Made by a program: the position numbers and the translations under genes. 64,000 nucleotides of DNA, from the NCBI GenBank assembly GCA_964517415.1, contig CAZFCA010000004.1, positions 18,754 through 82,753 on the forward strand. Reading direction: 5' to 3'. The stretch is from an uncultured Rhodospirillaceae bacterium. Its GTDB lineage: Bacteria > Pseudomonadota > Alphaproteobacteria > UBA9219. The notes beneath the pieces were generated by a model. The model was not told the origin of the DNA, did not search any database, and saw nothing but the letters and a program-made list of their open reading frames with translations. Below are positions 1,329-19,975 of the stretch, piece after piece (positions within the stretch are counted from its first letter, which is position 1; the number at the start of each line of letters is the position of its first letter).

Positions 1329-4073
1329 TTAAACAGCCGACCCGTGGCAATGTTTATACTTTTTTCCCGAACCGCAGGGGCAGGGGGCGTTTCTGGGGGT
1401 ATCGCTCCATGTTTGGGAATTGGCGGGATCAAAAGGGCTGTGCCGGATCGGCAGTGCCATGATAGCATGAGCGCCGGCTGAGCCTTTCATCATGTCCTCG
1501 GGCAGGGGCTCGCCGAAAGGCATTGCTGCGCCTGCTTCCGCCCCGCTCAGTTCCGTCAGAGCGGCGGCGCGGTTGCGCTCCATAATCTCCTCAAGAGAAG
1601 GCAAGCGCATGCCCGCGTGCATAAGGCTGCGCGTCACTTCCTCCCGCACCGATACCAGCATCAATTGAAACAGGCCGAACGCTTCGCGGCTATATTCGTT
1701 CAAGGGATCGCGCTGCCCATAGCCCCGCAAATGAATGCCCTGCCGCAACTGGTCAAGCGCGAGCAGGTGGTCTTTCCAGGCCTGATCCAGCGTGCCGAGC
1801 AAAGCCGCCTTTTCCGCGTGGCGCATCGCGTCGGGATCGATGATCGAGGTTTTTTCCTTCAGCTTTTCCTCAATCGCGCTGCGGGTGCGCTCTTCAATCT
1901 CGACCTCGGCGATATTGTCTTCGGCAGCCCACTTGTCGATAGGCAGGTCGAGCGCGAATACATCGCTGATGCGCTCCATAAGCCCAACGATATCCCATTG
2001 TTCGACATAGGAATGGGGCGGAATCGCCTTGGTTACGAAATCGTGAATCACTTCCTCGCGCAGGTCCTTAATGACGCCGCTGACGTCCGCCGCGCTCATG
2101 ATATCGCGGCGCTGTTCGTAAATGACTTTGCGCTGGCTGTTCATGATGTTGTCGAATTTCAGCAAATTTTTGCGCATATCGAAATTGCGCGCTTCCACCT
2201 TTTGCTGCGCTTTTGCCAAAGCGGTGGTGATCCATGGATGCGAAATTTTCTCCCCGTCGCGCAGACCGAGTTTCGTCAAAATGGCCTGAGTCTGGTTATG
2301 CGCGCCGAAAATGCGCATCAAATCGTCTTCCAATGAAAGAAAGAATACCGACGCGCCTGGATCACCTTGCCGCCCCGAACGACCGCGCAACTGATTGTCG
2401 ATGCGGCGGGATTCGTGCCGTTCCGTGCCGATCACGAAAAGGCCTCCGGCTTGCCGCGCTTTTTCCCGCGCGGCGTCGATTTCCTTGCGCAAGGCGGCGA
2501 CGGTGGCTTCGTCCGGCTCGCCGTTGGCTGAAAGTTCGGCAAGGCGGGCTTCGAAATTGCCGCCCAGCTGAATGTCCGTGCCGCGCCCTGCCATGTTGGT
2601 TGCGATGGTCACGTTTCCGGGCCTTCCGGCCTGCGCGATGATCTGCGCCTCCTGATCATGGAAGCGGGCGTTCAATACATTATGCGGAACGCCTTTTTTC
2701 TTTAAAAGCGCCGAAAGCGCTTCTGACTTTTCAATTGACACGGTGCCGACCAAAGTGGGCTGCCCGCGCTTCTGGCACTCCTCAATCAATTTCACGATGG
2801 CGTCGGTTTTCTCGGCCATCGTTCCATAAACCTCGTCGTTTTGGTCGTCGCGGACGATGGGCACGTTCGTGGGTATTTCAAGGACTTCAAGATTATAGAT
2901 TTCCGCGAATTCGGCCGCCTCGGTCAACGCCGTGCCCGTCATGCCCGACAGCTTGGGATACAGGCGGAAGTAATTTTGAAACGTGATGCTGGCCAAAGTT
3001 TGGTTCTCGCGCTGGATCGTCGTGCGCTCCTTGGCCTCCAAAGCCTGATGCAGCCCGTCGGAATAGCGGCGGCCTTCCATCATGCGCCCCGTGAATTCAT
3101 CGATGATGACGACCTTGTCGTTCTTGACGATGTAATCGACATCGCGCGTGAACATTTTATGCGCCCGAAGCGCCTGATTGACATGATGCACGATTGTTAC
3201 GTTGGCGGGGTCGTAAAGGCCCGCGCCCGGAGTCAAAAGGCCGGCTTCACCCAAAAGGACTTCGATTTTTTCGTTTCCAGCTTCGGTCAAGGCGATGGTC
3301 TTGCTTTTTTCGTCCTTTTCAAAATCGCTGTCGGACAGTTTGGGGATGATTTCGTCGACGCGCTTGTAAAGCTCCGAAGAATCTTCAGCCGGGCCGGAAA
3401 TAATCAGCGGCGTGCGCGCCTCGTCGATCAAAATGCTGTCCACTTCGTCGACAATGGCGAAATTGAATGCGCGTTGAGCCAGATCGCTATAAGCGAACTT
3501 CATGTTGTCGCGCAAATAATCGAAGCCGAATTCGTTATTAGTGCCATAGGTGATGTCGGCGTTATAGGCGGCGCGGCGTTCATCGTCTTCAAGACCGTGC
3601 ACGATGCAGCCGACCGATAGGCCGAGGAAATTATGGATTCGCCCCATCCACGCGCTATCGCGGGTGGCAAGGTAATCGTTAACGGTCACGATATGCACGC
3701 CCTTGCCCGTCAGGGCGTTCAAATAGCTGGGCAAAACGGCGACAAGGGTTTTGCCTTCGCCGGTTCTCATTTCGGTTATTTTGCCTTGATGCAGGACAAT
3801 GCCGCCGCGCAATTGCACGTCGAAAGGCCTTTGCCCCAAAACGCGCCACGCGGCCTCGCGCACGACGGCAAAGGCTTCGGGCAAAAGGGCGTCCAGCGTT
3901 TCGCCCTTGGCCAAGCGTCCCTTGAATTCGTCCGTCTTGGCGCGTAAAGCCTCGTCGGAAAGAGCCTTCATCGACGGCTCCAGCCCGTTGATTTTTGCGA
4001 GAATGGGGTTCTGAGCGCGCAGGACACGATCATTATGCGAACCAAACAATTTCCGCGCCAAAGAGCTAATCAT
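1329..4073 (-). CDS. secA: Preprotein translocase ATPase SecA
   Basis: 914 aa. Motor motifs [14 protein letters not shown] and [20 protein letters not shown] are present, plus the C-terminal zinc motif [14 protein letters not shown]. Confidence 0.97.
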
Positions 4074-4396: not shown

Positions 4397-5356
4397 TTAT
4401 TGAAGGGTGCCTTTTGTTCCCTGAATGACCCATTTGTCGCCCTGCATTTTTATGTCCGTGATGCGGCCGATGCCTGGGAGCGAATCGCCGACCTGGACCT
4501 CTTTCAAATCGGTGGAATTGACACTTTTTGACACCCACGCCTGCCCATTGGAAGCGGCGCGCAAAACAAGGCCTGAAGCGGCTTTCTTCTGCGTTGCCCG
4601 CTCAACCTTTGCCTTGGGGGCGCGCTTGGGTTCGGACGCGGCGCGGGATGACTGTGGCGCACGGTCGGTTGCGGACAGCTTTTGTTCGATCTTTTCGACC
4701 TTGTCCAGAAGCTCTTTATAAGAAGGAACAGTCGCTTCCCCGCCAGCGGTGCTACCGCCCGTAAGAGAGTCGACAGATTTTTGAAGAGTATCGATGCGGC
4801 TTGTCAGAGCTTCGATGCGCTGCTCGGGGGTAGGTGGCGTCGGAACGGCCTCTGCCGAAGCAATGGGAACAGGAACGCTTGCCCCTGTGGGCGCGGCTGC
4901 GGCCGGCGCGCCCATGGGAACCGTCGTGACGGCGGCCGGAGAAACCGGCGCGACCGCGTCGGGCGCGAGGGGCGGCGGCGCAAGGATTTCGCTTTCCTTA
5001 GGCGCTTCGACCAAATTGGTTTTCTGGGCGGGCTGCGCTTGCTCTTGCGGGGAAGGAGGCGCGACAGGCAATTCCGCGACCGGCGCCGAGGGAATCGCGA
5101 AACTGTCCGCGCTGAATCCCTGTACCGAGGAGGAATTTCCGCTGAATTGCCACCAGGCGACCGCGCCCAAAAGGAAAACACCGCCTACCGCAGCCGCAAT
5201 CGGCAATACGGGCGAACGTTGAGACTTCGCAGAAGGCGGAGTTCTAGTATCTTCGACGGCAAACTCCTCTTCGGAAGGCAATTCGTGGACAGCGTCGCCG
5301 TCCTGAGTCGTGCCAGCGTCATGATCTTGCGGTTCTGAGCCAAAGGTATCAGTCAT
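4397..5356 (-). CDS. DotF/IcmG-like (IncI TraP-like) bitopic membrane protein
   Basis: The architecture matches DotF: acidic N-terminus, one TM segment (PVLPIAAAVGGVFLLGAVAWW), a Pro/Ala-rich spacer, a coiled coil, then a small C-terminal beta domain (GQAWVSK...VQVGDSLPGIGRITDIKMQGDKWVIQGTKG). That domain resembles the Legionella IcmG C-terminus as I recall it. The gene sits in the icmK-icmE-icmG order. Confidence 0.6.
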   Translation of the reverse strand: MTDTFGSEPQDHDAGTTQDGDAVHELPSEEEFAVEDTRTPPSAKSQRSPVLPIAAAVGGVFLLGAVAWWQFSGNSSSVQGFSADSFAIPSAPVAELPVAPPSPQEQAQPAQKTNLVEAPKESEILAPPPLAPDAVAPVSPAAVTTVPMGAPAAAAPTGASVPVPIASAEAVPTPPTPEQRIEALTSRIDTLQKSVDSLTGGSTAGGEATVPSYKELLDKVEKIEQKLSATDRAPQSSRAASEPKRAPKAKVERATQKKAASGLVLRAASNGQAWVSKSVNSTDLKEVQVGDSLPGIGRITDIKMQGDKWVIQGTKGTLQ

Positions 5357-5443
5357 TTATCCACTCCTGCGATTATTATTCAAGCCAAGGGCTTGCGGAC
5401 GCTCAAGATCAAAGGACTTAGGTCAGGATAGGCAAGACCGAAT

Positions 5444-7027
5444 TTATCGTCCCATGATTTGTTGAGCATAAGGCGAGTACCCCATAGTGCCATAAGACGC
5501 GCCGTAAGGATAGGGACTTATCGCCTGATTATATGGATTATTTATATATGCGCCCGGCGTGATGTTCCCATAATTGGGGGATCCGTAGCCGTTGACCGTC
5601 GTCCCAGGATAAAGCGGAACGTTTCCGCCCGTATAAGCGCCGTAGGAAGAAGTTCCATAAGGGGCGTTATAGGGGTTTGTGGCATTATAAACCGTGTTTG
5701 AACCAGGCGCGGGTAAAAACTGCCTTTGCGCCGTGGTTGGCATCGTGCTGGAAACGGTATCGGGGTCCATGACAGGGGAGAGAAAAAACAGCCCCATAGG
5801 CGTGCCGGCCGCGACGCGGACCAAAGGCTTTGTGATGTCGGCTTGATGCTGGAAGAAGCGTCCCATCGTTTGCGCGCCCGTGCCAATGCCGCTGTATAGG
5901 CCTTCGCGGATGCCTTCGCGGCTGTTGGTGACGATTGTCGTATTGCCGTTCATCACATAAGACACGTCGTTGTGCCCCATGGCGGAACCGAAGCCTTCCA
6001 GAAAGGCGGCGGCCGTGGGCAGGACAAGCCTTGTAAAATAGCGTTCATCCACTTCTGTGGCCATGCCGCCAAGCGTGGTGTTCGGGTCAAGGGCGATGGC
6101 GTCGATGGTGTAGTCTTTGCCCTTCTTGGCGGCGAGATGGAACCGGAGAACAAGGTATTTTTCATACCCTTCCGCCACTTGGAATGAGCCAACCACGCGC
6201 GCGCCGTTCAGCGGGCCGGAAACGATTTGCCCCAGAATAGGACCCGGAACGTCCGAATTGGCCTCCGTCAGCAATTGCGCATAGCTAACCGTGCCGGCGG
6301 CGACCACTTTCTTTGCCTTTGTCTGGTCGCTAGCCGCTTGCTTGGCCTTCAGCGCATTGGCAAGCGCTTGAGCTTGGCGTTCCTGTTCGGCCTTCAGTTC
6401 GTCCGCGCTGATAACTGTCACGCTTTTCATGCCTTGCGGAATCCAGCTTTGCAAAAGCTGGTTCATCTGGCGCTGCATTGCTTGGGCAAGCGAATCATCG
6501 AAAGGCTCGGGCGGGCGTTGCTGTATTTGCATCTGCTGCTGGGCGAGCTGCCGCCTTTGCGCCTCCATTTCCAGCCTCAAATCCCTTAACGGATCATCCT
6601 TGTTGTCGCCCATGCCGGGCAGGCCGACATCCGACTTTTGCCCGATGGGCGTCGGCATCGCGCTGCCGCCCGATTGAAGGGCGTCCCGCGAGCGCGTAGC
6701 CGTGGCTTTTTTCGTTTGCTCGATCATGTAAGGCGAGGCTTCGCCGCCCGGCGGCTCGCTAATATTGGGGGGCTTAATTAAATGGGCGATTTCGTTATTG
6801 GCGGGGCCACCAAAGAAACTGACAAGAGCTACGCCCACTAAAAAAACGCCGATAACCAGCACGAAGAATTTAAAAAGCGGACGATTGTGCCAGGCGTGCG
6901 CGATATTGCCCGAAAGGGTGTCTTTTTTATCGGGAGAATCCGAAACGGTTATCTCCGGCTCGGCAAATCCTTCGCCGTTGTTGATCTCGTTTCCGTTCTC
7001 GTTTTCGTTTTCAAAATCATTTGTCAT
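5444..7027 (-). CDS. DotG/IcmE-like VirB10/TrbI-domain protein with a Tyr/Gly/Asn/Pro-rich C-terminal tail
   Basis: N-terminal TM, Gln-rich coiled coil, then a DotG-type TrbI domain (NSDVPGPILGQIVSGPLNGARVVGSF, AIALDPNT, AAFLEGFGSAMG, VAAGTPMGLFF). The start overlaps the dotH-like stop by 11 nt (ATGACAAATGA). Confidence 0.85.
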   Translation of the reverse strand: MTNDFENENENGNEINNGEGFAEPEITVSDSPDKKDTLSGNIAHAWHNRPLFKFFVLVIGVFLVGVALVSFFGGPANNEIAHLIKPPNISEPPGGEASPYMIEQTKKATATRSRDALQSGGSAMPTPIGQKSDVGLPGMGDNKDDPLRDLRLEMEAQRRQLAQQQMQIQQRPPEPFDDSLAQAMQRQMNQLLQSWIPQGMKSVTVISADELKAEQERQAQALANALKAKQAASDQTKAKKVVAAGTVSYAQLLTEANSDVPGPILGQIVSGPLNGARVVGSFQVAEGYEKYLVLRFHLAAKKGKDYTIDAIALDPNTTLGGMATEVDERYFTRLVLPTAAAFLEGFGSAMGHNDVSYVMNGNTTIVTNSREGIREGLYSGIGTGAQTMGRFFQHQADITKPLVRVAAGTPMGLFFLSPVMDPDTVSSTMPTTAQRQFLPAPGSNTVYNATNPYNAPYGTSSYGAYTGGNVPLYPGTTVNGYGSPNYGNITPGAYINNPYNQAISPYPYGASYGTMGYSPYAQQIMGR

Positions 7028-8198
7028 GTTCTTCGTCCCTGGAAATATTCGCGCGCATCATGGCGCCATTGTCCGACAGCAAAAGAATGGGCGCAGTGCC
7101 TATTTCATATGCTGATGTGCCGTCAGCCGACGTCACGCAGGCGTTCCAGGCAGGGGACAAGAGGCTAAGGGGTGTGCGAAGATATATTTTTTCGCCGACG
7201 GCCCAGGCTTTGGTTCGAGCGTCCAGTCCCCTCACTTTAAGCGGAACGGCTGAATTCGGCGGCGCGTTTTCGAGGATCAGTGTAATTGTTTCGTCGCCCG
7301 CTTCAAGGCGTGGGCGCTTGATGATTTGCGGCTTGGCGTTGGGCCCCAGTTTGCCGATCCGCGCATCGTAACGAAGATCGACCGTGGGGCCTCCCGAAGC
7401 GAGACGGAAAATAACGGGCGTCGGCAATCCCTGCAAAAGAACCGAGAGATCGCCTGTGCCTACGCGGGTCAAAGGCATGATGCGGACGACATGGGTTCCA
7501 GCCTTGGTGGGCGAAACCTCGAAATTGCCGCCGATCCCGACGTCCATAATGGGCCACGGCTCGCCCGTCGCGTCGACAATGGCGATGGTGGAAACGAAAC
7601 CGGCGTTCAGGTTGACTTGAGGCGTTTCGGTGCCCGGGTCGAGCGTGATCGTCGAAACGCGCGTTTGCCCCTTAGGCGTGCCTTCAGAAGGCATTTGCGA
7701 GGCGTCTTGCGTTTGTTCCAGCCGCTGCATGAACATGTGAATCTGTTCGGGCGAAAGCGGCATTAGACCCATAGAAGCCTTGTCGAAAGACTTGGCGTTA
7801 TGCTCCTGTTCGCGCCTGCGCTGATCGGCTTCGGCTTGGGTTTGCGCCTCAAGCGCCGCCTTCTCGGCTTCTATGGCAAGCTGGTTAGCGTCGGCCGAAA
7901 AAGCGGGAGCGGGCGGCGGCGACGGAACATCTTCTAGCGCGATTCCTTGGGGGGTGCTTGACGGCAGCGCTGATTGCGAAGCGCTTTTTTGAGGAAGAGG
8001 GAGCGAATCCGTAATAGAGCCGGGCCTCGCGATGCTGTTGCTTGCGGCGAATGCGGGCAGGGGCGTTTCGGAAAAAGCAAGAAGCGACCCGATGGCCAGA
8101 AGGGATAAGGATCCCGATTTAAGGCGGAGACAGGGGAATGTTTTGCGCAAAGACGGCTCCGAATCAGATAATTGCTTTGATTCTTTTTTTGAGCACAC
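7017..8198 (-). CDS. DotH/IcmK-like (IncI TraN-like) T4BSS core-complex protein
   Basis: Long collinear motif matches to DotH/IcmK as recalled: LSPEQI, AGFVSTIAIVDATGEPWPI, GLPTPVIFRL, VDLRYDARIGKLGPNAK, YLRTPLSLLSPAWNACVTSADGTSAYEIGTAPILLLS. It has an N-terminal signal-like segment. The start is a non-ATG (GTG) codon and is uncertain. Confidence 0.85.
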   Translation of the reverse strand: MCSKKESKQLSDSEPSLRKTFPCLRLKSGSLSLLAIGSLLAFSETPLPAFAASNSIARPGSITDSLPLPQKSASQSALPSSTPQGIALEDVPSPPPAPAFSADANQLAIEAEKAALEAQTQAEADQRRREQEHNAKSFDKASMGLMPLSPEQIHMFMQRLEQTQDASQMPSEGTPKGQTRVSTITLDPGTETPQVNLNAGFVSTIAIVDATGEPWPIMDVGIGGNFEVSPTKAGTHVVRIMPLTRVGTGDLSVLLQGLPTPVIFRLASGGPTVDLRYDARIGKLGPNAKPQIIKRPRLEAGDETITLILENAPPNSAVPLKVRGLDARTKAWAVGEKIYLRTPLSLLSPAWNACVTSADGTSAYEIGTAPILLLSDNGAMMRANISRDEEHDK

Positions 8199-8400
8199 GA
8201 AAGTTAATAGGAAGTTTATATGCCTCGAGGAATTTAGGAATTGGATGAGGTGTTACAAAGATAGTTGCCGAAAAAATTAACCATATAGTCTGGGAAAAGC
8301 TCGTTTGAAGGGAGTCATAAGGCGCGAAACGAAGGTGAAAGCCCTCGGCGTTGAATGGTATTCTTTGGCTCAGGAAAGGAAAAGCTGATCAAATAATGCG

Positions 8401-9852
8401 TTAGCTTTGCAAAAGACGCCTTAGCAACTCCACGTCTTCTTTGAAGGCGGCGTCATAGGAAGAAAGTTCTTCAATCTTGCGCACGGCATGAATAACCGTG
8501 GTATGATCGCGCCCGCCAAATTTTCGCCCGATTTCCGGCAAACTGCGCGGGGTCAGCTGTTTGGCAAGGTACATCGCCACTTGCCTTGGCCTTGCTACAG
8601 AACGAGCGCGGCGTGCTGAATGCATATCGGCGACGCGAACGTTGTAGTGCTCGGCCACTTTTTTCTGGATTTCGTCGATGGTGATCCGGCGTTCCGAAGC
8701 GCGCAGAAGATCGGCCAAGACTTCCTGCGTCATTTCCAGCGAGATCGTGCGACCGACAAGCTGAGCATGAGCGACGATGCGGTTCAAAGCGCCTTCCAAC
8801 TCGCGCACGTTCGAGGTGATTTTATGCGCCAGAAATTCCATCACCTTATCGGGAACGGGGCAGCCCAGCTTGTCGGCCTTGGCGTGGAGAATGCCAAGGC
8901 GAAGCTCGTAATTGACTGGGTGAAGGTCGGCGACCAGACCCCATCCAAGGCGAGAGCGTAGCCGCTCCTCCATGCGGTCGAGATCCTGTGGAGATTTATC
9001 GGCGGAAACAATGACCTGCCGATTGCGGTCGACCAAGGCATTGAAGGTATGGAAAAATTCTTCCTGCGTGGACTCTTTTCCGCCGATGAACTGCACGTCG
9101 TCGATCATCAAAACGTCAACAGACCGGAATTGTTCCTTGAACGAGACTGTGTCCTTGAAGCGCAGGGCGCGAACGAACTGGTACATGAATTTTTCCGCAG
9201 ACATATAAATAACGCGGCGGTTCGGATAGGTGGTGCGAATATGCCAAGCGATGGCGTGCATCAGGTGGGTTTTTCCAAGGCCGACGCCGCCATAAAGAAA
9301 AAGGGGATTAAAAGCAGGATTTTCCGTATCCGCCACGCGCCGCGCCGCCGCATAGGCCAACTCGTTTGGTTTGCCGACCACGAAATTGTCGAAGGTAAAG
9401 CGCGGATCGAGATCCGCCGCCGTCTCGCCAGTCAAATGAGAAGGCGAAAAAGGAACAGCCTGAGCGGGAGCCGTCGCTGCGCTACGACCCGCGGGCGGCG
9501 AAGCGGATGCGGCGCTGTCAATGGCGTTTTTGGCTTGCGCCGCTTTGGCGAGCGGCGACAGGACGGAGAAAGTCACTCCGCCCCGAAGCGAAAATCTTTG
9601 CCACAAAACGCGAATGACCTCGCCATAATGCGCTTCGACCCAGTCGCGCATAAAGCGCGTCGGCAGAATCATATTGGCGTGGGCGATGCCCGCGTTATCG
9701 CGGGAGATTTCACTGACCATAGGCTCCAGCCAGCGGCGAAAGGCCGTTTCGCCGAAGCGCTCGCGCAAAAGAAGACGCAGATCATTCCAGGCTGTGTCGG
9801 GGGTATCCGTCGTCTTTGCTAAACCAATTTCTGCCGCTTGAACGCTCATCAT
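8401..9852 (-). CDS. dnaA: Chromosomal replication initiator DnaA
   Basis: 483 aa. AAA+ motifs (LFLYGGVGLGKTHL, LMIDDVQF) and the C-terminal DNA-binding helix (GGRDHTTVIHA). Confidence 0.97.
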   Translation of the reverse strand: MMSVQAAEIGLAKTTDTPDTAWNDLRLLLRERFGETAFRRWLEPMVSEISRDNAGIAHANMILPTRFMRDWVEAHYGEVIRVLWQRFSLRGGVTFSVLSPLAKAAQAKNAIDSAASASPPAGRSAATAPAQAVPFSPSHLTGETAADLDPRFTFDNFVVGKPNELAYAAARRVADTENPAFNPLFLYGGVGLGKTHLMHAIAWHIRTTYPNRRVIYMSAEKFMYQFVRALRFKDTVSFKEQFRSVDVLMIDDVQFIGGKESTQEEFFHTFNALVDRNRQVIVSADKSPQDLDRMEERLRSRLGWGLVADLHPVNYELRLGILHAKADKLGCPVPDKVMEFLAHKITSNVRELEGALNRIVAHAQLVGRTISLEMTQEVLADLLRASERRITIDEIQKKVAEHYNVRVADMHSARRARSVARPRQVAMYLAKQLTPRSLPEIGRKFGGRDHTTVIHAVRKIEELSSYDAAFKEDVELLRRLLQS

Positions 9853-10285: not shown

Positions 10286-10555
10286 CTAGGCCTTGCCGGC
10301 CTTTTTTGCGCGCTTGGCAAGACGCGAGGTTTTCCGAGCGGCCGTCCTTTTATGAAGCGTGCCTTTCGCCGCGCTTTTGGCGAGCGCGGACTCGGCTTTG
10401 CGCAAAGCCGCCTTAGCGGCAGACGCGTCGCCGGAAGCAAGCGCGGCTTCCGCGCCCTTGATCAAAGTGTGAATAAGAGAACGCCGCGCGCGGTTCTTTT
10501 CATTATGCTTGACCGTCTGGCGCGCCCGTTTTTTTGCGGATTTGTGGTTGGCCAT
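10286..10555 (-). CDS. rpsT: 30S ribosomal protein S20
   Basis: 89 aa, very basic, starting MANHKSAKKRARQ. It sits in the classical position upstream of dnaA. Confidence 0.95.
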   Translation of the reverse strand: MANHKSAKKRARQTVKHNEKNRARRSLIHTLIKGAEAALASGDASAAKAALRKAESALAKSAAKGTLHKRTAARKTSRLAKRAKKAGKA

Positions 10556-10994: not shown

Positions 10995-11960
10995 ATGCCA
11001 AATAAAATTGCTTCCATATCCTATGGTGCGGTATCTCTTGCGTTGGCTGCTGTTCTTCTTGCATCGCCCGCTTCTGCAGGTTTCCAGATGGGCTCTGGCG
11101 GTACGGCGGTACGATCTTCCGCCCCTCGGCCTGCTTCGGATATGCCCGAGGTAATATCCCCCATCGTCATTTCCGGCGAACCGCAGCCCGTTTCTCTTTC
11201 TGCCCCACCCCCGGCTCCTGCTGTTCTTCCTTCCGCGCCCGCGCCTACCTTTCAGCCTCCAGCCGCACCTGCGGTAGATGTTTCCAACGCGGTGGTTCGC
11301 GGCTTTGCCTCGCAGGTGCCGCTTGCGCTGGCCATGCGGCAACTTCTGCCCGTCGGCTATACCTTTTACATCGATCAGGATGTTGATACGAATGTGCTCG
11401 TTTCTTATCGTGGCGGAAGGCCTTGGCCCGAAACGCTTAAAAGCATGCTGGCTCCCGTCGGGCTTGTTGATCAGATACAAGGAACGGTCGTAACGGTAAG
11501 CCGTGTGCCTTCGGGCGCGCCTGCAATGCCAATCGCGGAAACAACGCCGCTGACACAGCCCGCGCCGGCCGCGCCAAGAACAATCGGCCAGCTAACTATC
11601 CCTGCGACCTCGGCGCCTCCTCCTCCGCAACGTTTTGCGGCGCCCGCTCCATTGGCAAGCGCGCCAATGACTCCGTATGCCGCTGCCGAGTCATGGTCGG
11701 CTCAGCGCGGCGACACGCTTCACAAGGTGTTGACGGCTTGGTGTCGCAAGGCCAACGTGGAGCTTCAGTGGCTTTCCGAGTACGACTATCCCTTGCAGGC
11801 TTCGGTCAGTTTTAGCAACGGATTCGAAGACGCTGTGCGCGGCCTTCTGTCGGGGTTTGAAAATGCCCAGCCCCAGCCGGTAGGAGAGCTGCATGCCAGT
11901 TCTATCGCAGGGCAAATGGTATTAGTCGTTCAGGTGCGCGGCAATAGTTACACGAATTAA
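10995..11960 (+). CDS. PilL/TcpQ-like periplasmic protein (type IVb pilus accessory)
   Basis: Signal peptide, Pro/Ala-rich linkers, an STN-like segment (VPLALAMRQLLPVGYTFYIDQDV...GTVVTV) and a C-terminal TcpQ-like domain (WSAQRGDTLHKVLTAWCRKANVELQW...FEDAVRGLL). It lies directly upstream of the PilN-like secretin, as in IncI/ICE pil clusters. Confidence 0.6.
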   Translation: MPNKIASISYGAVSLALAAVLLASPASAGFQMGSGGTAVRSSAPRPASDMPEVISPIVISGEPQPVSLSAPPPAPAVLPSAPAPTFQPPAAPAVDVSNAVVRGFASQVPLALAMRQLLPVGYTFYIDQDVDTNVLVSYRGGRPWPETLKSMLAPVGLVDQIQGTVVTVSRVPSGAPAMPIAETTPLTQPAPAAPRTIGQLTIPATSAPPPPQRFAAPAPLASAPMTPYAAAESWSAQRGDTLHKVLTAWCRKANVELQWLSEYDYPLQASVSFSNGFEDAVRGLLSGFENAQPQPVGELHASSIAGQMVLVVQVRGNSYTN

Positions 11961-11971
11961 CGGAGATTGGG

Positions 11972-13627
11972 ATGCCTTTGAAACGGACGTTGCTCATGAA
12001 AAAAGTTGTCGGACGCCTTACATTCTGTGCCCTTATCGCAGCAGTCTCCATCGGTTTTGGCGGCTGTGAATTGGCGGAAAAAACCCGAACTGAAATCGAT
12101 CGGCAAGGAGCCGAGGCTCGGACATCCCTCGATAATGCGCAAAACATCCGCACGACTTCTTTCGATCCCTTAAAGGTTACGAACAAAGTTTGGGGTGGCA
12201 ATGCTTCCTTACGCATGCAGCGCGGCATGCCCCTGCCATCGCGGTATGAAACCAATCGCGGCGTCACTCTCGTTTCTTCGGAGCCTATGTCCTTGGAAGA
12301 AGTCGCGAATGCGGTCAGTTCCCAAACTGGCATTCCCGTCCGCATGAGCGCGCTGTCGATACCCGGTCGCTCCGCCGCCGCTTCATCATCATCTTCTTCG
12401 TCGTCGTCTTCTTCGAAAGGCGGCATGCCGGTTTCCTACGAAGGGCCGCTGTCGGGGCTGATGGATAGAATCGGCGCCTATTTCGGTGTCAGCTGGCGCT
12501 TTGATGGATCATCTATCGCCATCTCGCGCTACGAAACGCGCATATTCGCGGTCGAAGTTATGCCCGGCACGCATCAAATTAACGAAGGCATGGAAGACGA
12601 CGAAACTAGCAGCAGCAGCAGCAGCGGCAGCAGCAGCGGCGGCGGCAGCAGCACCAAGGCGATTACGCAAAATTCCAAAGTTACGATGGATCTCAAATAT
12701 TGGGACGAACTGACGGCCGTCCTCAACTCGATTGTGGGCACTCAAGGCAGCGTCGTCGTTTCGCCGACGATGGGCACGATTACGGTTACGACAACGCCCG
12801 AAGTCATGTCGACAGTCGCCGACTATATCTCGAAGGAGAACAAACGTCAGGCACGACAGATCGCGATTAACGTGACCATATACAGCGTTAATCTTTCCGA
12901 ATCCGAAGATTTTTCGACCGCCTTCACTGCCTTCCTGCGCAAATATGCCGGTATTGGCGGCATAGATCCCATAACGGGAGGCGCGATGCCGGCTATCACG
13001 TCTCCATCTGTGATCGCCAGCGATATGGGCAGTTTAAACCTTGCTATCATCGACGGCCACAGAATGGGCGCGCGCGATGTTTTCAGCGCGTTGTCTGCCA
13101 TCGGGGATACGACAACCGTCGCCTCCTTCCCCATGACGACCCTGAACAATCGCCCTGTTTCGCGGCGCATCGGAACGGATACGACCTATATTTCCGAAGT
13201 GACGCAAAATACCACGTCGTCTTCATCCACGACGACCATTGCGACGCCGACCACATCGGTCGTTCACGACGGCTTTTCGCTTCAAATTACGCCGCGCATT
13301 CTGGATGATGGGCGCATCCTTCTTCAATACTCGCTTAGCTTGATCGCTCTTCAAACGATGGACACGGCGGGAACGGGCACGGATTACACAATCAGCCTGC
13401 CCGTGACGGACAACAGAATCTTCATTCAACAGTCCATGCTGCGCAGCGGGCAAACGCTTATGATCGGCGGCGTCGATCAGAAAAAGCTGGCGCAAAACAA
13501 GCAAGGCATAGGCGTGCCGGACAACATCTTCCTCGGCGGAGGGCAGTCCACCTACGACTCCCATGTCATGATGTTTATTTCGATAACCCCGAAGGTCATG
13601 GATATGGGGCTTGAGGAGCGCAACTAA
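11972..13627 (+). CDS. PilN-family type IVb pilus secretin lipoprotein
   Basis: Lipobox IGFGGC. C-terminal secretin domain (FPMTTLNNRPVSRRIG...GFSLQITPRILDDGRILL...LRSGQTLMIGGV). Two poly-Ser linkers. A GGAG RBS lies 8 nt upstream of the ATG. Confidence 0.8.
   Translation: MPLKRTLLMKKVVGRLTFCALIAAVSIGFGGCELAEKTRTEIDRQGAEARTSLDNAQNIRTTSFDPLKVTNKVWGGNASLRMQRGMPLPSRYETNRGVTLVSSEPMSLEEVANAVSSQTGIPVRMSALSIPGRSAAASSSSSSSSSSSKGGMPVSYEGPLSGLMDRIGAYFGVSWRFDGSSIAISRYETRIFAVEVMPGTHQINEGMEDDETSSSSSSGSSSGGGSSTKAITQNSKVTMDLKYWDELTAVLNSIVGTQGSVVVSPTMGTITVTTTPEVMSTVADYISKENKRQARQIAINVTIYSVNLSESEDFSTAFTAFLRKYAGIGGIDPITGGAMPAITSPSVIASDMGSLNLAIIDGHRMGARDVFSALSAIGDTTTVASFPMTTLNNRPVSRRIGTDTTYISEVTQNTTSSSSTTTIATPTTSVVHDGFSLQITPRILDDGRILLQYSLSLIALQTMDTAGTGTDYTISLPVTDNRIFIQQSMLRSGQTLMIGGVDQKKLAQNKQGIGVPDNIFLGGGQSTYDSHVMMFISITPKVMDMGLEERN
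12608..12652 (+). repeat. In-frame AGC/GGC trinucleotide tract inside the pilN-like gene
   Basis: (AGC)6 GGC (AGC)3 (GGC)3 (AGC)2 encodes a Ser/Gly linker. A second Ser run, built from mixed TCA/TCT/TCG codons, lies at about 12378..12417. Confidence 0.85.
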
Positions 13628-14862
13628 TGGCATCCGGCGTCGTCACTGTAGGCCGCCATCGCTATGCCGTCGGTCTTTACTGGGAAAACAGCCCGGGCGG
13701 CGGGCATGTGGCCCAGATTGCGAAGGAAGCCGCGCGCCAGCCCGGCCAACAGGCTGACTTTTACGTCATCCGCCGCGGCACAAAAGACAGGCATGTCCCC
13801 CAGTTCGGTCTATGCGCGGGGGAGGCAGGGCAAAAAGCCGGCATGCCGGTTCTTGCGGGGTGTCTTGCCAGCCAGATACCCGGATCCTGGGCAGGCGCTT
13901 TCCGCCTGAATGAGGGCGTTGCCGTCATTATCGTTCGCGACGACCTGATCGTTCCTGACGGCGACTTGTTTTTTACGGATGAATCAGACGCGCGCGAACG
14001 CCTGATACAGGAAATCGGTTTTGGCGGCTTGCAAACCATTTACGCCCCCGAGGCGTGGTCTATCCCGGGCGCCGATACCATTCCGCTAACGTTACTTATC
14101 AGCAATCGAACCGACATCCAATTACAGCGGGTGTCCATACCACCGAAAGTCAAAATGGCTATAGCAGCGGGGGCTTTGGCTTTCGCGATTATTTTAGGAA
14201 TCGTCTGGGCGATTAATGCACGATTGGAAAAGGAAAGAACCGAACGTGAAGAAGGGGCGAAACTCGCCGCCAATTTGCCCCAGCTCTTTCAGCAACAACA
14301 GCCGAAGCCCGAGTATATTAGATATTGGGAAGATGCGCCGCTGGTAAACGCCATTCTAAGCGCATGCAAAGAAGGCCTTTCCCTTATTCCATCCGGCATG
14401 AGCGGTTGGAATCTGACGTCCATGTCCTGTAGCGGCTCAAGCCTGTCCTTATCATGGTCCCGTACGAAAGGCATAACGGAGCCGCCATTGGGCGCTCATG
14501 TGGATGATTCCGGCGGAATAGCCACCAAATCGATATCGATGAAAGCCCTTGAAAAGCGCGGTCACGAAGATTTATTGAATATCGAAGATATAACAAAGCG
14601 TTACCTTCTCCAAACATGGCCGGGTTCGATTGCGCGCGCGCCTGACGATCCGCCTCCACCTCCTCCCCCGGGATATAATGGGCAATGGACTCCCCCTCCT
14701 GCGCCTTGGGTTAAGCGTTCGTTTACGCTTACTGTGCCAGAATTGCCGGGTGGGCTTCCGGGATATATAGGTGATATCCCCGGGGCTATGATTAACAGCA
14801 TGAGCTATACGCCGAACGGCGTGTGGACCATCCAGGGGGTTATCTATGAGAATCGCAGGTAA
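13627..14862 (+). CDS. PilO-like type IVb pilus accessory protein (R64 PilO / PilO2 family)
   Basis: N-terminus of the pattern (V)GRHRYAVGLYWE, typical of this family, one central TM, and a poly-Pro segment (PPPPPPPGY). The start overlaps the pilN stop (TAATG). Confidence 0.65.
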   Translation: MASGVVTVGRHRYAVGLYWENSPGGGHVAQIAKEAARQPGQQADFYVIRRGTKDRHVPQFGLCAGEAGQKAGMPVLAGCLASQIPGSWAGAFRLNEGVAVIIVRDDLIVPDGDLFFTDESDARERLIQEIGFGGLQTIYAPEAWSIPGADTIPLTLLISNRTDIQLQRVSIPPKVKMAIAAGALAFAIILGIVWAINARLEKERTEREEGAKLAANLPQLFQQQQPKPEYIRYWEDAPLVNAILSACKEGLSLIPSGMSGWNLTSMSCSGSSLSLSWSRTKGITEPPLGAHVDDSGGIATKSISMKALEKRGHEDLLNIEDITKRYLLQTWPGSIARAPDDPPPPPPPGYNGQWTPPPAPWVKRSFTLTVPELPGGLPGYIGDIPGAMINSMSYTPNGVWTIQGVIYENRR

Positions 14863-15682
14863 AATCATCTCGCCAGTGACGTTTTCGGCTTTTGCGGCTG
14901 TCGTCACTGTTCTCGGGCTTTGCGTGTTTGCAGCCAAAGGGACATTTGCCGCAGATCCGGCTCCGGCGATTGCCTCTTCGGCACCCGTATCTCAAGCGCC
15001 CATGTCCTCGGCGCAAGCGGCGCCTGTTGCGGCTCCCGCAGCCGCGCCGGCAAGCTCAAACGTCATTCCCACGGCTTTTCAGGTTCCTGAAGCCCCCAAA
15101 ACCGAAGGGGGAGACGATATCGCGAAAGCACTTTCCTCCATGGAGGACAAAGTAACCGACAACGCCAAGGCGCTTGTCAAAAAGCTCGATACGACGGAGC
15201 CGACGACCATATCGGATCTGAACTCGGCCAAGCAAACAGTTACCCGCATCGAAGCCATGATCGATATCGAAAAGAGGCTCGGCGAACTCGAAAAGCTGCG
15301 CAACGAGCGCAATTCACGCTCTTTTGCGGGCATGATGCCGGGACTTCCTGCAGGCCTTGCCGCAGCCATTCCGGCCAGCGCGCTTCAGCCTTTGCCAGGG
15401 CCGCTTGCCGCTGTGTCGCCCAGCGGTTCGCCCGACAGCCCACCAATCTTTCATGTCGGCAGCGGGCGTCCTGAAATTTCCCGCATTTCAGGCACGGAAG
15501 GAAAATATGTGGCGGTATTGAAGATGCCTGACGGCGAGAAAAAGTCGGTGAAAGCCGGCGAAAAATTCAGCCACGGCACTGTGAGATCGATCACGTCTTC
15601 GTCGGTGGAGATTGCCGACAAGGGAACTTCATACACCTTGCGTATTAAAAACGTTGACGCCATTTACAGCGCCATGCGCTGA
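14846..15682 (+). CDS. PilP-like periplasmic protein
   Basis: Signal peptide, Ala/Pro-rich linker, coiled coil, and a small C-terminal beta domain (GKYVAVLKMPDGEKKSVKAGEKFSHGTVRSITSSSVEI). It has the right position in the PilN-O-P-Q order and overlaps pilO by 17 nt. Confidence 0.5.
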   Translation: MRIAGKIISPVTFSAFAAVVTVLGLCVFAAKGTFAADPAPAIASSAPVSQAPMSSAQAAPVAAPAAAPASSNVIPTAFQVPEAPKTEGGDDIAKALSSMEDKVTDNAKALVKKLDTTEPTTISDLNSAKQTVTRIEAMIDIEKRLGELEKLRNERNSRSFAGMMPGLPAGLAAAIPASALQPLPGPLAAVSPSGSPDSPPIFHVGSGRPEISRISGTEGKYVAVLKMPDGEKKSVKAGEKFSHGTVRSITSSSVEIADKGTSYTLRIKNVDAIYSAMR

Positions 15683-15775
15683 GGGCGTGAGGGATCAGGG
15701 ACAAATGGAAACGCCTTTGTTGCCGGGTTCGTCGCCTCGTGGATCGATTTTAAAACGCTTCCAAAGGGTGTTTGT

Positions 15776-17701
15776 GTGTTCAGTTTGTCTGATCTTGTGG
15801 AAGGAAAATTAAAGGCTTTTAGCAAGCCTCGTCCTTCTGCGGCCAAAACGAAGCCCGGCCCGTCAGGAAGACAGTTTCAGAACGTAAAGCAGGGAAACGT
15901 GACGGCGGGCGTAAAACCAGCGCAGCCCCCCGCTGTGCCGATGCCTTCCGATACGGTCGATCCCGCGGCCGAAGCGTCAGGAGCCCCGGTTCCCAATCAA
16001 CCGCCTGCCGACGTCATTAAACTTGAAGACGAACGCGCGCTCGCTCTTTTGTTTGAGGGCGAAGTGCTTACCGCTGAAGGCGGCGCGCTAAAAATTCCCG
16101 ACGAAGCACGGAATTTATGCGTCCTTTTTAAATCAGGGTTATGGCTGGTGAGCGCGTCGCACAGACGTTCGCCTTTGGTCACCTCCGTCGCGCAGGTTGC
16201 CAAAAGGCAGGGCCATAAGGTCGACGAGCCGCGCTTTGTAACACCGAACGTTATCATTCAGGCCTATATATTTGCCGAGCGGAGCGGAAAAAGCGGTCGC
16301 TTTGATGAAAACGCGGTGCGCCGCCGCATCGTGGCCACGTTTGAGCAAGCCGTGTCGATGGGCGCGAACGATATCCATATTGAATCCGTCGGCGGGCGCG
16401 CGGTTGTCCAGTTCCGCATCGACGGGTCGCTGCGGAGGCAAGACGTATGGACGCAAACGGAAGGCGATCACTTTCTTGCCGCAGTCTATTCCCACTCTAT
16501 TGGCCAGTCTGGCGCGACGGCCAACTTTCAAGAACCTCAAGCCGCGATGCTTGTGGGCGACGCGCGCGGCAAGGAAGTCATCAATCTTCCCAAAGGCATC
16601 GTCAGCGTGCGCTGCCAATGGGTGCCTTTATCGAACAACGGCGCCTATCTCGATATGCGCCTGTCCTACGATTCAGGCCATTTGTGGGGCGAAAATTTCG
16701 TCATGGCCGATGTCGACTCGCTCGGCTTTTCGCAGGAGCAGTTGAAGGTCGTGCAAAGGCTGCGCGCCGCCCCCGGAGGATTGCGCATTTTTTCAGGTCC
16801 CGTCAACCAAGGTAAAACGACGACGCTGCGCGTCGTGCTGAACCGCCGCATGGCGGAAACCGAAATGCGGCTGAACTGCCTGATGATCGAAGACCCCCCC
16901 GAAGGCGGCGTCGAAGGGGCGCGCCAATTGGGCGTTTCCGCTTCGGTCAAGGACGAGCAGCGCGAAAAAACCTTCGTCGAAATCATGCGCTGCGCCTTGC
17001 GCCTCGACCCCGACATCGTCATGCTCGGCGAAATTCGTGATCCGCAAACAGCGCAATTCGCTTTTCGTTTGGCGCTTACAGGACGACAGGTGTACACGAC
17101 ATCTCACGTGTATTCCGCCTTGGCGACTCCCAAGCGCCTACGCGATATTGGGATCGAGCCTTACTTGGTGTACGACCACCATCTTGTGCGCGGCATGGCG
17201 TGCCAACGCCTTTTGCGAAGCCTTTGCCCTTATTGCCGCGTGCCGATTCAAGAGGCGATCAAAGAATACGGCCCTACGGTGCGCGAACTTGCCAAGCGCG
17301 TGCGCGCGGGACTTGCGATCTTGGACGCGCGCCGAAAAAAGGAAAACGTCGGTAAGCCGATCATGGAATGCCTGACTGAACCCGACCTCAGCAATGTCTA
17401 TCTAGCCAATCCAGAAGGCTGCCCGAAATGCTACAAGGGGCGGCAAGGGCGCACGGTTTGCGCTGAAATTGTTGAAACCGACCCGAAACTTATGGCCCTT
17501 TTGGAGGATAACCGCGAGGAGGAGGCCGAAAGTTATTGGCTCTCGCCCATCGGCCTGAATGGCATTACCATGCTGCAACGGGGTCTTGAAAAGGTTCGCG
17601 CGGGTGAAGCCTCGCCCGACGACGCTGAATTCGAGCTGGGAACTTTCGCCAGCGATAACGAGCTTCTTGAAGTTGAACAAAAACTGGGGCCACTGCGATG
17701 A
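15776..17701 (+). CDS. PilQ-like GspE/PilB-family assembly ATPase
   Basis: Walker A GPVNQGKTTT, Asp box/Walker B region (LMIEDPPE, IVMLGEIRD), and a tetracysteine motif (CPYC...CPKC). It has an N-terminal extension of about 200 aa. The start is GTG and uncertain. Confidence 0.85.
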   Translation: MFSLSDLVEGKLKAFSKPRPSAAKTKPGPSGRQFQNVKQGNVTAGVKPAQPPAVPMPSDTVDPAAEASGAPVPNQPPADVIKLEDERALALLFEGEVLTAEGGALKIPDEARNLCVLFKSGLWLVSASHRRSPLVTSVAQVAKRQGHKVDEPRFVTPNVIIQAYIFAERSGKSGRFDENAVRRRIVATFEQAVSMGANDIHIESVGGRAVVQFRIDGSLRRQDVWTQTEGDHFLAAVYSHSIGQSGATANFQEPQAAMLVGDARGKEVINLPKGIVSVRCQWVPLSNNGAYLDMRLSYDSGHLWGENFVMADVDSLGFSQEQLKVVQRLRAAPGGLRIFSGPVNQGKTTTLRVVLNRRMAETEMRLNCLMIEDPPEGGVEGARQLGVSASVKDEQREKTFVEIMRCALRLDPDIVMLGEIRDPQTAQFAFRLALTGRQVYTTSHVYSALATPKRLRDIGIEPYLVYDHHLVRGMACQRLLRSLCPYCRVPIQEAIKEYGPTVRELAKRVRAGLAILDARRKKENVGKPIMECLTEPDLSNVYLANPEGCPKCYKGRQGRTVCAEIVETDPKLMALLEDNREEEAESYWLSPIGLNGITMLQRGLEKVRAGEASPDDAEFELGTFASDNELLEVEQKLGPLR

Positions 17702-18795
17702 GCGAATTTGAAGAAAAACTAGCCTCCTTTCAGGAGAAACTCACGAAATTCCAGTTTCGCGTCAATCGGCGCATAAGGTACCGGATCTACCGGAAGCTGG
17801 AAGGCATGTTGAAGACGAACGAAGCGTTATCCCGCTCGTTGGATCGTCTTTATCAAAACATGACCGAAATGGGCAAATATCCGCAGCGTCCTTCCGCCAT
17901 CGCCCTTCGCGAATGGTTTTTGAAGGATCGGTCGGGCATTTCGCTTTCTCAAGCCATGGAAAGCTGGATTCCTGACGGCGAGCTTTACATGATCCGAGCG
18001 GGCGAGGAATCGGGCACCTTGGCCAAGGCGCTGGCGTCCATCCAAATCATGGGCAAGCGCGGTCGCGAAATGAGGGAGGCGGTGACCTATGCCATCGGTT
18101 ATCCGGCTTTTATCACTCTGCTGGTCGGCTTCGTGATTTGGACCTTCGGCGTCAACCTGATTGCCAACATGCGCGCCAACGCGCCGAAGAATATCGTGGA
18201 TTCCCTTGGGATGATCGTGCCGTTTTCTGATTTCATCGGCGACTGGGGGCTTTATATCGTCGCTTTCATCATTATCGTTTGCGTCGTGATAACGCTTACT
18301 ATGCCCTATTGGCGCGGGCCTTTGCGCTCCAAATTCGATATGTACCCGCCGTGGTCGTGGTATCGCGTCTTGCAGGGCAGCAGCTTTCTTTTAGGGTTAT
18401 CCTCGCTTCTTGGATCGCAGGTGCCGCTAAAACGCTCGCTGGAAATTCTTGAAGAGCAGGGCAGCCCATGGATCAAAGAGCGCATCAATGCCGCGCGGCA
18501 AGGCGTTTTGCGCGGGCAAAACCTGGGCGAGGCTTTGCGGCTTAGCAAAATGAATTTTCCAGAGCCCGGCGTGGCCATCGACCTTGAAATTTTGGCTGAT
18601 CGCGCCGACGTCGGCGCTGTGATCGAACAGGTCGCGGACGAATGGATGCAGGAACAGGTCGATACCATGAAAATGCAGGCTGTCTTTATCCGAAATGTCG
18701 GAATGGCTGTCGTCGGCGGCATTATCGCTTGGGCGATGATGTCCATCTTCAGCGTCGTGGGCGAGCTGTCCAAGGGCGGCTCAGCCATGGGCTAA
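17698..18795 (+). CDS. PilR-like GspF-family inner-membrane platform protein
   Basis: 365 aa with three hydrophobic segments separating two cytoplasmic helical domains. The start shares an ATGA overlap with the pilQ stop. Confidence 0.8.
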   Translation: MSEFEEKLASFQEKLTKFQFRVNRRIRYRIYRKLEGMLKTNEALSRSLDRLYQNMTEMGKYPQRPSAIALREWFLKDRSGISLSQAMESWIPDGELYMIRAGEESGTLAKALASIQIMGKRGREMREAVTYAIGYPAFITLLVGFVIWTFGVNLIANMRANAPKNIVDSLGMIVPFSDFIGDWGLYIVAFIIIVCVVITLTMPYWRGPLRSKFDMYPPWSWYRVLQGSSFLLGLSSLLGSQVPLKRSLEILEEQGSPWIKERINAARQGVLRGQNLGEALRLSKMNFPEPGVAIDLEILADRADVGAVIEQVADEWMQEQVDTMKMQAVFIRNVGMAVVGGIIAWAMMSIFSVVGELSKGGSAMG

Positions 18796-19015: not shown

Positions 19016-19975
19016 CTAATGGCTCATCGACACGACCTTGAGTATCGCCGGCCCCAAAAGAACGACGAACAGCGGTGGCAGAATGAATAGAATCATCGGC
19101 ACCGTAAGTGTCGCCGGCAGCTTCGCCGCCTTTGTCTCGGCCGCCATGATGCGGTCGTTGCGCATTTCGCCCGATAAAACCCGCAAGGCCTGAGCCAACG
19201 GCGTGCCATATCTTTCTGTTTGGATAAGCGTGTTTACAAGGCCGACCACGCCTGGCAAAGGCACGCGGTCGCCCAGATTTTGCAAGGCTTGGCTGCGCTC
19301 GGGGAAGAAGCTCAACTCGACCCCGGTCAAACCGACTTCCTCGGCCAATTCGGGGCAGGAAGGCTCCAATTCGCGACTTACGCGAGCCAAGGCCGCGTCA
19401 AGGCTCAATCCTGCCTCGGCGCATATCACCATCAAATCAAGCGCGTCGGGCATGGCCTTCCTTAAAATGGAAGCGCGCTTCTGGCTCAAATTTTTAACAT
19501 AAAGTGAAGGCAGCATGACGCCCAGAACAAGCATGCCGCAAAAAGCCAGCATGCGAGGCATAGTGTCGAAACTAAAGGCTTGCGCCACGAAAAGAACAAA
19601 AAAGGCGATAAACCCGATCAATACCGGGGAGACGATGCGAATCAAAAGATAGGTCATGACTGCCTCGCGCGACCGATAGCCTGCGCGCGCCAGTTTCAGG
19701 CGAAGCTCGCTCGTTTGTTTGCCTTGTTCGAGTCGCATCTTCTGCACAAGCCGCTTGATGAAATCCGTCTTGATCAGATTTTCTCGGCGGGATTTTTTCA
19801 GTTGCCGCTGCGCCTCCGTCAACTCTTTGCGCCTTTCCGCTATCCCTTTCAAGCGGTCTTCCAGAGGATTGTCGTCGACAAGCGCCATCCAGATCAAAAC
19901 CACGACAACGACGGCGCCCAATCCGCAAACAAAGGAAAGAACGGTCGGATCATGCAAGGCGCGGTCGAGCGTCAT
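19016..19975 (-). CDS. tadC: Tad pilus platform protein TadC
   Basis: GspF-like half-size membrane protein immediately downstream of tadB. Confidence 0.85.
   Translation of the reverse strand: MTLDRALHDPTVLSFVCGLGAVVVVVLIWMALVDDNPLEDRLKGIAERRKELTEAQRQLKKSRRENLIKTDFIKRLVQKMRLEQGKQTSELRLKLARAGYRSREAVMTYLLIRIVSPVLIGFIAFFVLFVAQAFSFDTMPRMLAFCGMLVLGVMLPSLYVKNLSQKRASILRKAMPDALDLMVICAEAGLSLDAALARVSRELEPSCPELAEEVGLTGVELSFFPERSQALQNLGDRVPLPGVVGLVNTLIQTERYGTPLAQALRVLSGEMRNDRIMAAETKAAKLPATLTVPMILFILPPLFVVLLGPAILKVVSMSH

Follow-up and report, generated by a model that had tools for sequence, protein, structure and literature searches.

A DotH-DotG-DotF locus between dnaA and secA, probably one part of a dispersed chromosomal Dot/Icm-type secretion system in an uncultured Micavibrionales-like alphaproteobacterium

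Three consecutive minus-strand genes lie between dnaA and secA in the window analysed here, a 64-kb stretch of contig CAZFCA010000004.1 from an uncultured Rhodospirillaceae bacterium; they code for homologues of DotH/IcmK and DotG/IcmE and for a likely DotF/IcmG, all components of the Dot/Icm type IVB secretion system (T4BSS). The usual account makes Dot/Icm a hallmark of the Legionellales and of a small number of other Gammaproteobacteria adapted to hosts (PMC8896642, PMC11338181). A first-pass annotation, made from the sequence before any database search, had described the three genes as an orphan subset of such a machine, and its account of the locus itself is sound: the three open reading frames (ORFs) exist as called, the peptides quoted from them are all present in the translations, the order is icmK-icmE-icmG, and the triad is embedded among core genes with dnaA and secA as its flanks. 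Its status as an orphan is another matter. With a probability of about 85%, we regard the triad as the core-complex locus of a dispersed, chromosomal and vertically inherited Dot/Icm-type T4BSS in an uncultured Micavibrionales-like alphaproteobacterium.

Judged by its sequence, the 393-aa ORF at the head of the triad is unambiguously DotH/IcmK, as had been proposed. It matches Pfam PF12293 (T4BSS_DotH_IcmK) at E=9.1e-69, with 231.6 bits against a cut-off of 25 and over profile positions 1-237 of 238, and the DotH of Legionella pneumophila in PDB 6x62 at E=3.2e-45, over chain residues 105-358 of 361. No NCBIfam family, and hence no TraN model, matched this protein. Gene callers place the start at a TTG at 8150, which gives 377 amino acids and is likely the true start, and the N-terminus contains a signal-peptide-like segment.

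The second protein carries the DotG-type TrbI/VirB10 domain that the first-pass annotation had seen in it, with matches to Pfam TrbI (E=4.1e-11, 43.5 bits against a cut-off of 35), to the NCBIfam IcmE/DotG model (E=2.9e-46, restricted to C-terminal positions 740-1005 of 1008 and with 158 bits against an equivalog cut-off of 750), to IncI1 TraO (E=3.3e-20, 72.7 bits against a cut-off of 225), to VirB10 (E=2.7e-3) and to the PDB chain of L. pneumophila DotG (E=4.7e-22, residues 773-1045 of 1048). Its layout comprises a cytoplasmic N-terminal tail, one transmembrane segment, a Gln-rich linker, the VirB10/TrbI domain (residues ~242-418) and a C-terminal tail rich in Tyr, Gly, Asn and Pro. Since the alignment covers only Legionella residues 773-1045, this is a short, TraO-sized DotG without the ~700 residues that precede the VirB10-like domain in Legionella. 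The tail, which takes up the ~110 C-terminal residues after the VirB10-like domain and is of low complexity, is a feature in its own right: tails of ~75-115 residues are found in nearly all members of the clade, in both of the genomic context types described below, and share the semi-conserved motif YPGTTVNGYG...VPYPNYA.

The third protein, of 319 residues, is likely a member of the DotF/IcmG family, on a weak sequence signal combined with synteny. As a single sequence it matches the NCBIfam models for IcmG/DotF (1.9e-4, 21 bits against a cut-off of 200) and TraP (2.4e-4, 20.9 bits against a cut-off of 135), and a PDB search with it returned low-complexity noise only. When 36 positional orthologues were combined into a profile, the top-scoring PDB entry was L. 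pneumophila DotF (7muc_AF, E=6.4e-6), aligned colinearly from the transmembrane segment through the C-terminal beta domain. The DotF architecture previously read from this ORF, with a cytoplasmic N-terminus, one transmembrane segment, a Pro/Ala-rich linker, a coiled coil and a small C-terminal beta domain, is thereby backed, as it is by the protein’s place after DotG, which is the DotF position in the canonical clusters of relatives. The profile hidden Markov model searches that had been suggested as a check on the triad therefore gave strong matches for the DotH and DotG families and a weak one for DotF. By the same sequence criteria the three proteins are homologous to IncI TraN, TraO and TraP, not equivalogs of them, the TraO and TraP scores lying far below their cut-offs.

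The overlap of 11 nt between the DotH stop and the DotG start, which had also been spotted at first pass, is real: it can be read directly as ATGACAAATGA, giving H-D-K-stop in the DotH frame over M-T-N in the DotG frame, and most of about 50 related loci, drawn from both context types, retain it. Translational coupling of the two genes would fit this arrangement. A scan for sigma-70 promoters and terminators found no site in the gap between dnaA and DotH (8199-8400), with overall counts near the shuffled expectation; as the scan is barely above background, it neither supports nor excludes read-through from dnaA.

The DotH of the window has more than 340 homologue clusters at E<1e-5, and the best 120 homologues are 52-100% identical to it, those with a name all coming from metagenome-assembled genomes (MAGs) labelled Alphaproteobacteria, Pseudomonadota or “Bdellovibrionales”. 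The assumption that Dot/Icm systems classically occur only in Legionellales or on IncI plasmids, which had made the triad look unexpected, is out of date: NCBI and JGI already name the proteins of these relatives DotH/IcmK, NCBI names IcmB as well, and in 2022 Needham et al. (PMC9418006) listed seven marine Micavibrionales MAGs with systems of the pT4SSi class, for which they required IcmB, six or more accessory genes and the absence of a relaxase. A scan of GTDB with one genome per species yielded 49 loci, all from MAGs, under the titles uncultured Rhodospirillaceae, Alphaproteobacteria, Micavibrio sp., Micavibrio aeruginosavorus and “Bdellovibrionales bacterium”. These titles, together with the filing of Micavibrio under Bdellovibrionales at NCBI, point to an alphaproteobacterial, Micavibrionales-like radiation.

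When the proteins of the window and those of one full cluster (L001) were placed on all loci, the arrangement rpsT-dnaA-(MAPEG)-DotH-DotG-DotF-secA-EamA was found to recur in 17 of the 49 species loci, which carry Micavibrio, “Bdellovibrionales” or Rhodospirillaceae labels, and in L003, a 585-kb contig with a DotH 62% identical to that of the window. The nearest relative, L004, has 85% DotH identity, and the insertion point between dnaA and secA is conserved down to 57-62%; this answers the question of synteny in the dnaA-secA interval that the first-pass annotation had raised. The second context type, seen in 29 species loci and in L001, is a cluster that Pfam and NCBIfam matches identify as canonical and region-II-like, X-DotI-DotI/J-DotH-DotG-DotF-TraQ/DotE-like-125aa-DotN-DotO-DotM, and a related contig (P0128) continues in the order DotO-DotM-154aa-T4CP, its type IV coupling protein (T4CP) having TraG-D_C and TrwB domains. 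The genes icmL/M and icmC/D/J/B surround the orthologous triad in the 29 species loci, and tblastn does not find them in the window. Intermediates also occur: some clusters end after DotN or DotF despite 7-10 kb of available flank, some are without DotO, and in L011 and L022 the triad stands alone among unrelated genes.

DotH, DotG and DotF are adjacent in every locus that shows all three, except L017 (7542-12317, MAG JARLJD01), where DotH-DotG is inverted relative to its neighbours (secA- DotF- / DotH+ DotG+ / dnaA-). This inversion implies that DotF can be transcriptionally uncoupled while DotH-DotG remains a unit. None of the ~60 loci inspected has a relaxase next to a T4BSS gene.

In genomes with an isolated triad, at least the IcmB motor of the machine can be found elsewhere: in six of them IcmB/DotO, an ATPase of the VirB4 family, lies on another contig, four being of the dnaA-secA type, one of the same type with the inversion and one with the triad in another context. 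Proximity of NCBI accessions links DotH with IcmB in JAGWKW01 (MDE2030179 and MDE2030067, respectively), JAGWIK01 (MDE1900046 and MDE1900868), JARLJD01 (MDR3425751 and MDR3424077), JAQVBU01 (MDD3028713 and MDD3030219) and JAQVZU01 (MDD4615615 and MDD4616979), and record names place the two loci in the same assembly for JAQVBU01 (L019/L058, contigs 1 and 13), JAQVZU01 (L021/L060, contigs 2 and 59) and JAMFSS01 (L014/L062, contigs 6 and 9). In the last three, all of the dnaA-secA type, icmB is solitary among housekeeping genes and directly downstream of phaR (PHB_acc_N/PHB_acc), at 10001-12985 in L058, 9094-12090 in L060 and 10001-12994 in L062, so that phaR-icmB joins the triad as another conserved islet of the dispersed T4BSS. 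The IcmB of the L001 cluster has ~1,560 matches, of which the 120 best listed are 71-86% identical to it.

The most extreme dispersal was seen in JBEOJY01 (L056), whose cluster is without DotO: a single DotO is found on another contig (10001-13006) between genes for an M23 peptidase and zapA, and DotM (20517-21746) stands 7.5 kb beyond it on the opposite strand, alone between an AAA protein gene and a DUF4405 gene, in surroundings of ATP synthase genes, pyrF, trpF, zapA and ompA. The deep-branching L023 has the order Der-MAPEG-triad-secA-PBP2-mreD-mreC, followed on the other strand by DotM, ~6.4 kb past the triad. DotM, DotN and a TraG/TrwB-type T4CP are thus all present in relatives within the clade. 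The description of the triad as an orphan three-gene subset finds no support in this comparison, given six isolated-triad genomes with IcmB elsewhere, a seventh with DotM ~6.4 kb away and sister lineages with full clusters; the other possibility offered at first pass, that of one locus of a dispersed T4BSS, is the one that the same data on IcmB, DotM and the sister clusters support.

The history of the genes is consistent with this. With Legionella DotH as root, a tree of the DotH proteins unites the dnaA-secA type, L011 and L022 in a single clade that is nested among cluster-type lineages and has branches no longer than theirs, and in the IcmB tree the six IcmBs of the isolated-triad genomes fall into one clade; triad and IcmB therefore appear to have been co-inherited. 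Purifying selection acts on the triad: when the window is compared with L004, the ratio of nonsynonymous to synonymous substitution rates (dN/dS), approximate because dS is saturated (1.5-2.2), is 0.064 for DotH, 0.085 for DotG and 0.12 for DotF, next to 0.03-0.04 for secA and dnaA. In GC content, GC at third codon positions (GC3) and codon usage the triad lies inside the spread shown by the other chromosomal genes of the window, in keeping with the host-like codon usage noted by eye at first pass. All this indicates that the T4BSS is of ancient origin in the radiation and that a single relocation brought the triad into the dnaA-secA interval. Given the purifying selection and the host-like composition, the triad most likely belongs, as one locus, to a chromosomal T4BSS that is dispersed and inherited vertically, and by analogy with the relatives the window’s own genome presumably holds the remaining parts.

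The visible part of that genome amounts to ~74 kb, the 64-kb window plus 10 kb to its left. A tblastn search of the window with clade DotI, DotJ-like, DotE/TraQ-like, DotN, DotO and DotM proteins gave no match, in agreement with the earlier statement that DotM, DotN and DotO are absent, and Pfam scans of the main ORFs turned up no other Dot/Icm family, the tblastn query set having contained no DotC, DotD, DotB or DotL and several of the small or hypothetical ORFs falling in no family. The contig continues leftward with housekeeping genes only (HAD, ETF, PNPase, rpsO), and no IcmB/DotO was found there or in the window. The organism’s own IcmB was also sought among IcmB clusters found only in Logan; P0128 came from unrelated samples, and none could be tied to the samples of the window. 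A tRNA scan of the window found none, and the Pfam scans of the main ORFs revealed no relaxase, integrase, plasmid or mobile-element gene, as had been said at first pass of tRNA, integrase and relaxase.

How such a locus may have come about and what it may do can be sketched as follows. In an old, vertically inherited system the T4BSS genes would have become progressively scattered among housekeeping genes; in the one sub-clade that includes the window, DotH-DotG-DotF would have come to lie between dnaA and secA, with IcmB/DotO elsewhere, typically alone after phaR, and with the remaining components presumably elsewhere in these genomes too, IcmB being the one traced there. By analogy with the L. 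pneumophila structures, DotH would be exported by Sec and become part of the outer-membrane cap and periplasmic ring, DotG would be anchored in the inner membrane and contribute the VirB10-like channel domain, and DotF would be an inner-membrane protein reaching the periplasmic ring. Translational coupling through the 11-nt overlap would keep the stoichiometry of DotH and DotG. The complete machine, if it works as its homologues do, would translocate proteins into a contacted cell; the absence of a relaxase beside the T4BSS genes in ~60 loci and the definition of the pT4SSi class (PMC9418006) make protein translocation likelier than conjugation.

A neighbouring locus that the first-pass annotation had missed bears on what else the triad could be. 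Divergent from it across dnaA and rpsT, and 2.8 kb away, is a pilL-pilN-pilO-pilP-pilQ-pilR cluster of the IncI/R64 type IVb kind, recognised by the TcpQ domain of PilL, the PilN secretin (TIGR02520 at 3.5e-76, just below the cut-off), PilO (PF06864), PilP (TIGR03021 at 3e-7), the PilQ ATPase and the PilR platform protein. Neither PilM, the PilS prepilin, PilT, the PilU peptidase nor PilV was found in the cluster, nor PilS, PilU or PilV elsewhere in the window, and as there is no type IV prepilin motif anywhere in the window, the pilL-R cluster is here without a pilin of its own. L004 has the cluster at the same place and L016 has pilL 3.6 kb past secA; for most other members of the dnaA-secA type, the surrounding 10 kb are free of pil genes.

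One could imagine a true orphan, in which the ATPases and the coupling complex have been lost and the triad has been repurposed as a stand-alone periplasm-spanning scaffold, for instance together with the PilN secretin and the type IVb pilus genes. The ~74 kb around the triad without another Dot/Icm gene and the pilin-less pil genes close by in the window, L004 and L016 would fit. We nevertheless think it improbable, because all six isolated-triad relatives that could be traced have IcmB elsewhere, which also leaves the repurposed periplasm-spanning module suggested at first pass unsupported, because neither the DotH branch lengths nor dN/dS give any sign of relaxed or shifted constraint, and because the pil cluster is not a regular companion of the dnaA-secA arrangement. 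Still less credible is a recently acquired and decaying remnant of an IncI-like conjugative plasmid or integrative and conjugative element, to which the traN-traO-traP order, the weak IncI1 matches (3.3e-20 for TraO, 2.4e-4 for TraP) and the homologues of IncI-type thin-pilus genes nearby might lead one: the window yielded neither an integrase or relaxase gene nor a tRNA or flanking mobile-element gene, the triad resembles its host in GC and codon usage, relatives down to 57-62% DotH identity share the insertion point, all three ORFs are intact and evolve under purifying selection, and DotG matches the Legionella-type model (2.9e-46) far better than TraO.

Several points also weigh against the dispersed T4BSS that we prefer. 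No further T4BSS gene is seen in the ~74 kb of the window’s own genome, and in the triad-type sub-clade IcmB is the only other component traced, DotM, DotL and DotI/J/E/N coming only from genomes that are of the cluster type or more distant. The trees are neighbour-joining trees without support values, the dN/dS values suffer from the saturation mentioned above, and it is submitters’ record titles that point to the Micavibrionales-like placement. Contamination of MAG bins is possible, so that finding two contigs in the same assembly does not fully prove that they come from a single genome, although the congruent DotH and IcmB trees argue against this objection.

With the Dot/Icm system of L. 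pneumophila (PDB 6x62, 7muc) the locus shares the icmK-icmE-icmG order, a DotH that is alike over nearly the whole structured part, the C-terminal VirB10-like domain of DotG and the DotF layout of N-terminus, transmembrane segment, coiled coil and C-terminal beta domain. The DotG proteins differ at both ends, since the Legionella protein has ~700 extra residues N-terminal to the VirB10-like domain and ends right after it, whereas that of the window has the clade-specific tail of ~110 residues. The extra N-terminal region of Legionella DotG is its repeat region. Further differences are the position between dnaA and secA in place of a dot/icm island, the alphaproteobacterial host and the very long branch that separates DotH from the Legionella protein. 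In Legionella, DotH is positioned in the outer membrane by DotC and DotD, two lipoproteins of that membrane.

The TraN-TraO-TraP genes of IncI1 plasmid R64 have the same three-gene order, a TraO similar in size to the DotG of the window and, nearby, the relatives of PilL/N/O/P/Q/R; in contrast, the context in the window is chromosomal, vertically inherited and host-like, with no relaxase, oriT or plasmid genes found. In its genome organisation, the dispersed T4BSS resembles the Rickettsiales vir homolog (rvh) system, another vertically inherited alphaproteobacterial machine, with genes scattered in several chromosomal islets. The likeness ends there, as rvh is a type IVA secretion system (T4ASS) of the VirB/D4 class and made of other proteins. 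The pT4SSi of the Micavibrionales (PMC9418006) is the same kind of system and probably from the same order-level lineage, the window’s membership being taken from the record titles of related MAGs; that survey counted systems only, and neither the gene-by-gene dispersal nor the dnaA-DotHGF-secA block is described there.

The triad is, then, an ordinary and explicable part of a known machine, and Dot/Icm-type systems in Micavibrionales had already been detected in the 2022 survey. Notable are how far the genes have dispersed, in places to single genes although DotH-DotG-DotF stay together, and the conserved dnaA-dotHGF-secA block. The common picture of Dot/Icm is widened by a large uncultured alphaproteobacterial radiation that has the system on its chromosomes and inherits it vertically. 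The cohesion of DotH and DotG, with their conserved 11-nt overlap, points to a constraint from co-assembly. Dispersal also has a practical side: software that looks for gene clusters, like an annotator judging by eye, can overlook a system of this kind or take a fragment for an orphan.

A T4BSS is a strong hint of cell-contact biology, its target being perhaps a protist host, perhaps bacterial prey. The genome paper on the cultured epibiotic predator M. aeruginosavorus ARL-13 reports no type IV secretion system (PMC3189940), which agrees with the finding that the T4BSS-bearing lineages, among those seen, are all uncultured: of the best 120 among 377 matches to the DotH of a Micavibrio-labelled MAG, none bears the name of a cultured strain or lies on a contig above 1 Mb. 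A literature search on Micavibrio with IcmK or T4BSS found nothing. We speculate, as an unlikely extension, that the machine is a contact-dependent weapon or feeding device of epibiotic predators, directed against bacterial prey and not at the manipulation of eukaryotes, or, more narrowly, that in the window’s lineage the triad and the pilin-less PilL-R secretin/ATPase set form a hybrid envelope machine. If the weapon reading were true, it would be the T4BSS counterpart of the bacteria-killing T4ASS of Xanthomonadales, conserved across hundreds of uncultured Micavibrio-like lineages and integrated, one gene after another, into their core chromosome (dnaA-dotHGF-secA, phaR-icmB).

Table 1. Positions of the triad, its flanking genes and other features in the 64-kb window.
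Feature	Position	Strand	Basis
EamA-family gene	396-1316	minus	ORF translation
secA, downstream anchor of block, outside machine	1329-4073	minus	ORF translation and synteny
DotF/IcmG-like, 319 aa	4397-5356	minus	weak NCBIfam matches, orthologue profile and position
DotG/IcmE homologue, short, 527 aa	5444-7027	minus	Pfam TrbI, NCBIfam, PDB
C-terminal tail of DotG	5447-5782	minus	
DotH/IcmK homologue, 393-aa ORF	7017-8198	minus	Pfam PF12293, PDB 6x62
DotH stop/DotG start overlap, 11 nt, ATGACAAATGA	7017-7027	minus	read directly from sequence
dnaA, upstream anchor of block, outside machine	8401-9852	minus	ORF translation and synteny
rpsT	10286-10555	minus	
pilL-pilN-pilO-pilP-pilQ-pilR cluster	10995-18795	plus	
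Tad/Flp locus (tadC to cpaA)	19016-27420	minus	
Flp pilin	27763-27924		
WD40 repeat protein, 392 aa	54170-55348	plus	

Beyond the pil genes, the window has a complete Tad/Flp locus that had likewise been missed at first pass, with tadC, tadB, cpaF, cpaE, cpaD, cpaC, cpaB and the cpaA peptidase gene (Table 1). The Flp pilin gene is followed by a SpoU methylase gene and then by ispB; in JAQVBU01 (L058) the same Tad-flp-SpoU block is found, but there it is followed by phaR and the solitary icmB. From ~28 kb on, the window is housekeeping in character (ispB, hemY, hemD, typA, plsX, fabH, uppS, pyrH, tsf, dapE, rluD, rpoH, gyrB), with genes for a methyl-accepting chemotaxis protein (MCP), a porin and a WD40 protein among them. 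The last of these, a beta-propeller repeat protein encoded between the porin gene and dapE, has many eukaryote-type WD40 Pfam matches, and its gene has a somewhat lower GC3 (0.59) and a more divergent codon usage than its neighbours. It is conceivable as a eukaryote-like effector candidate; WD40 proteins are also common in bacteria.

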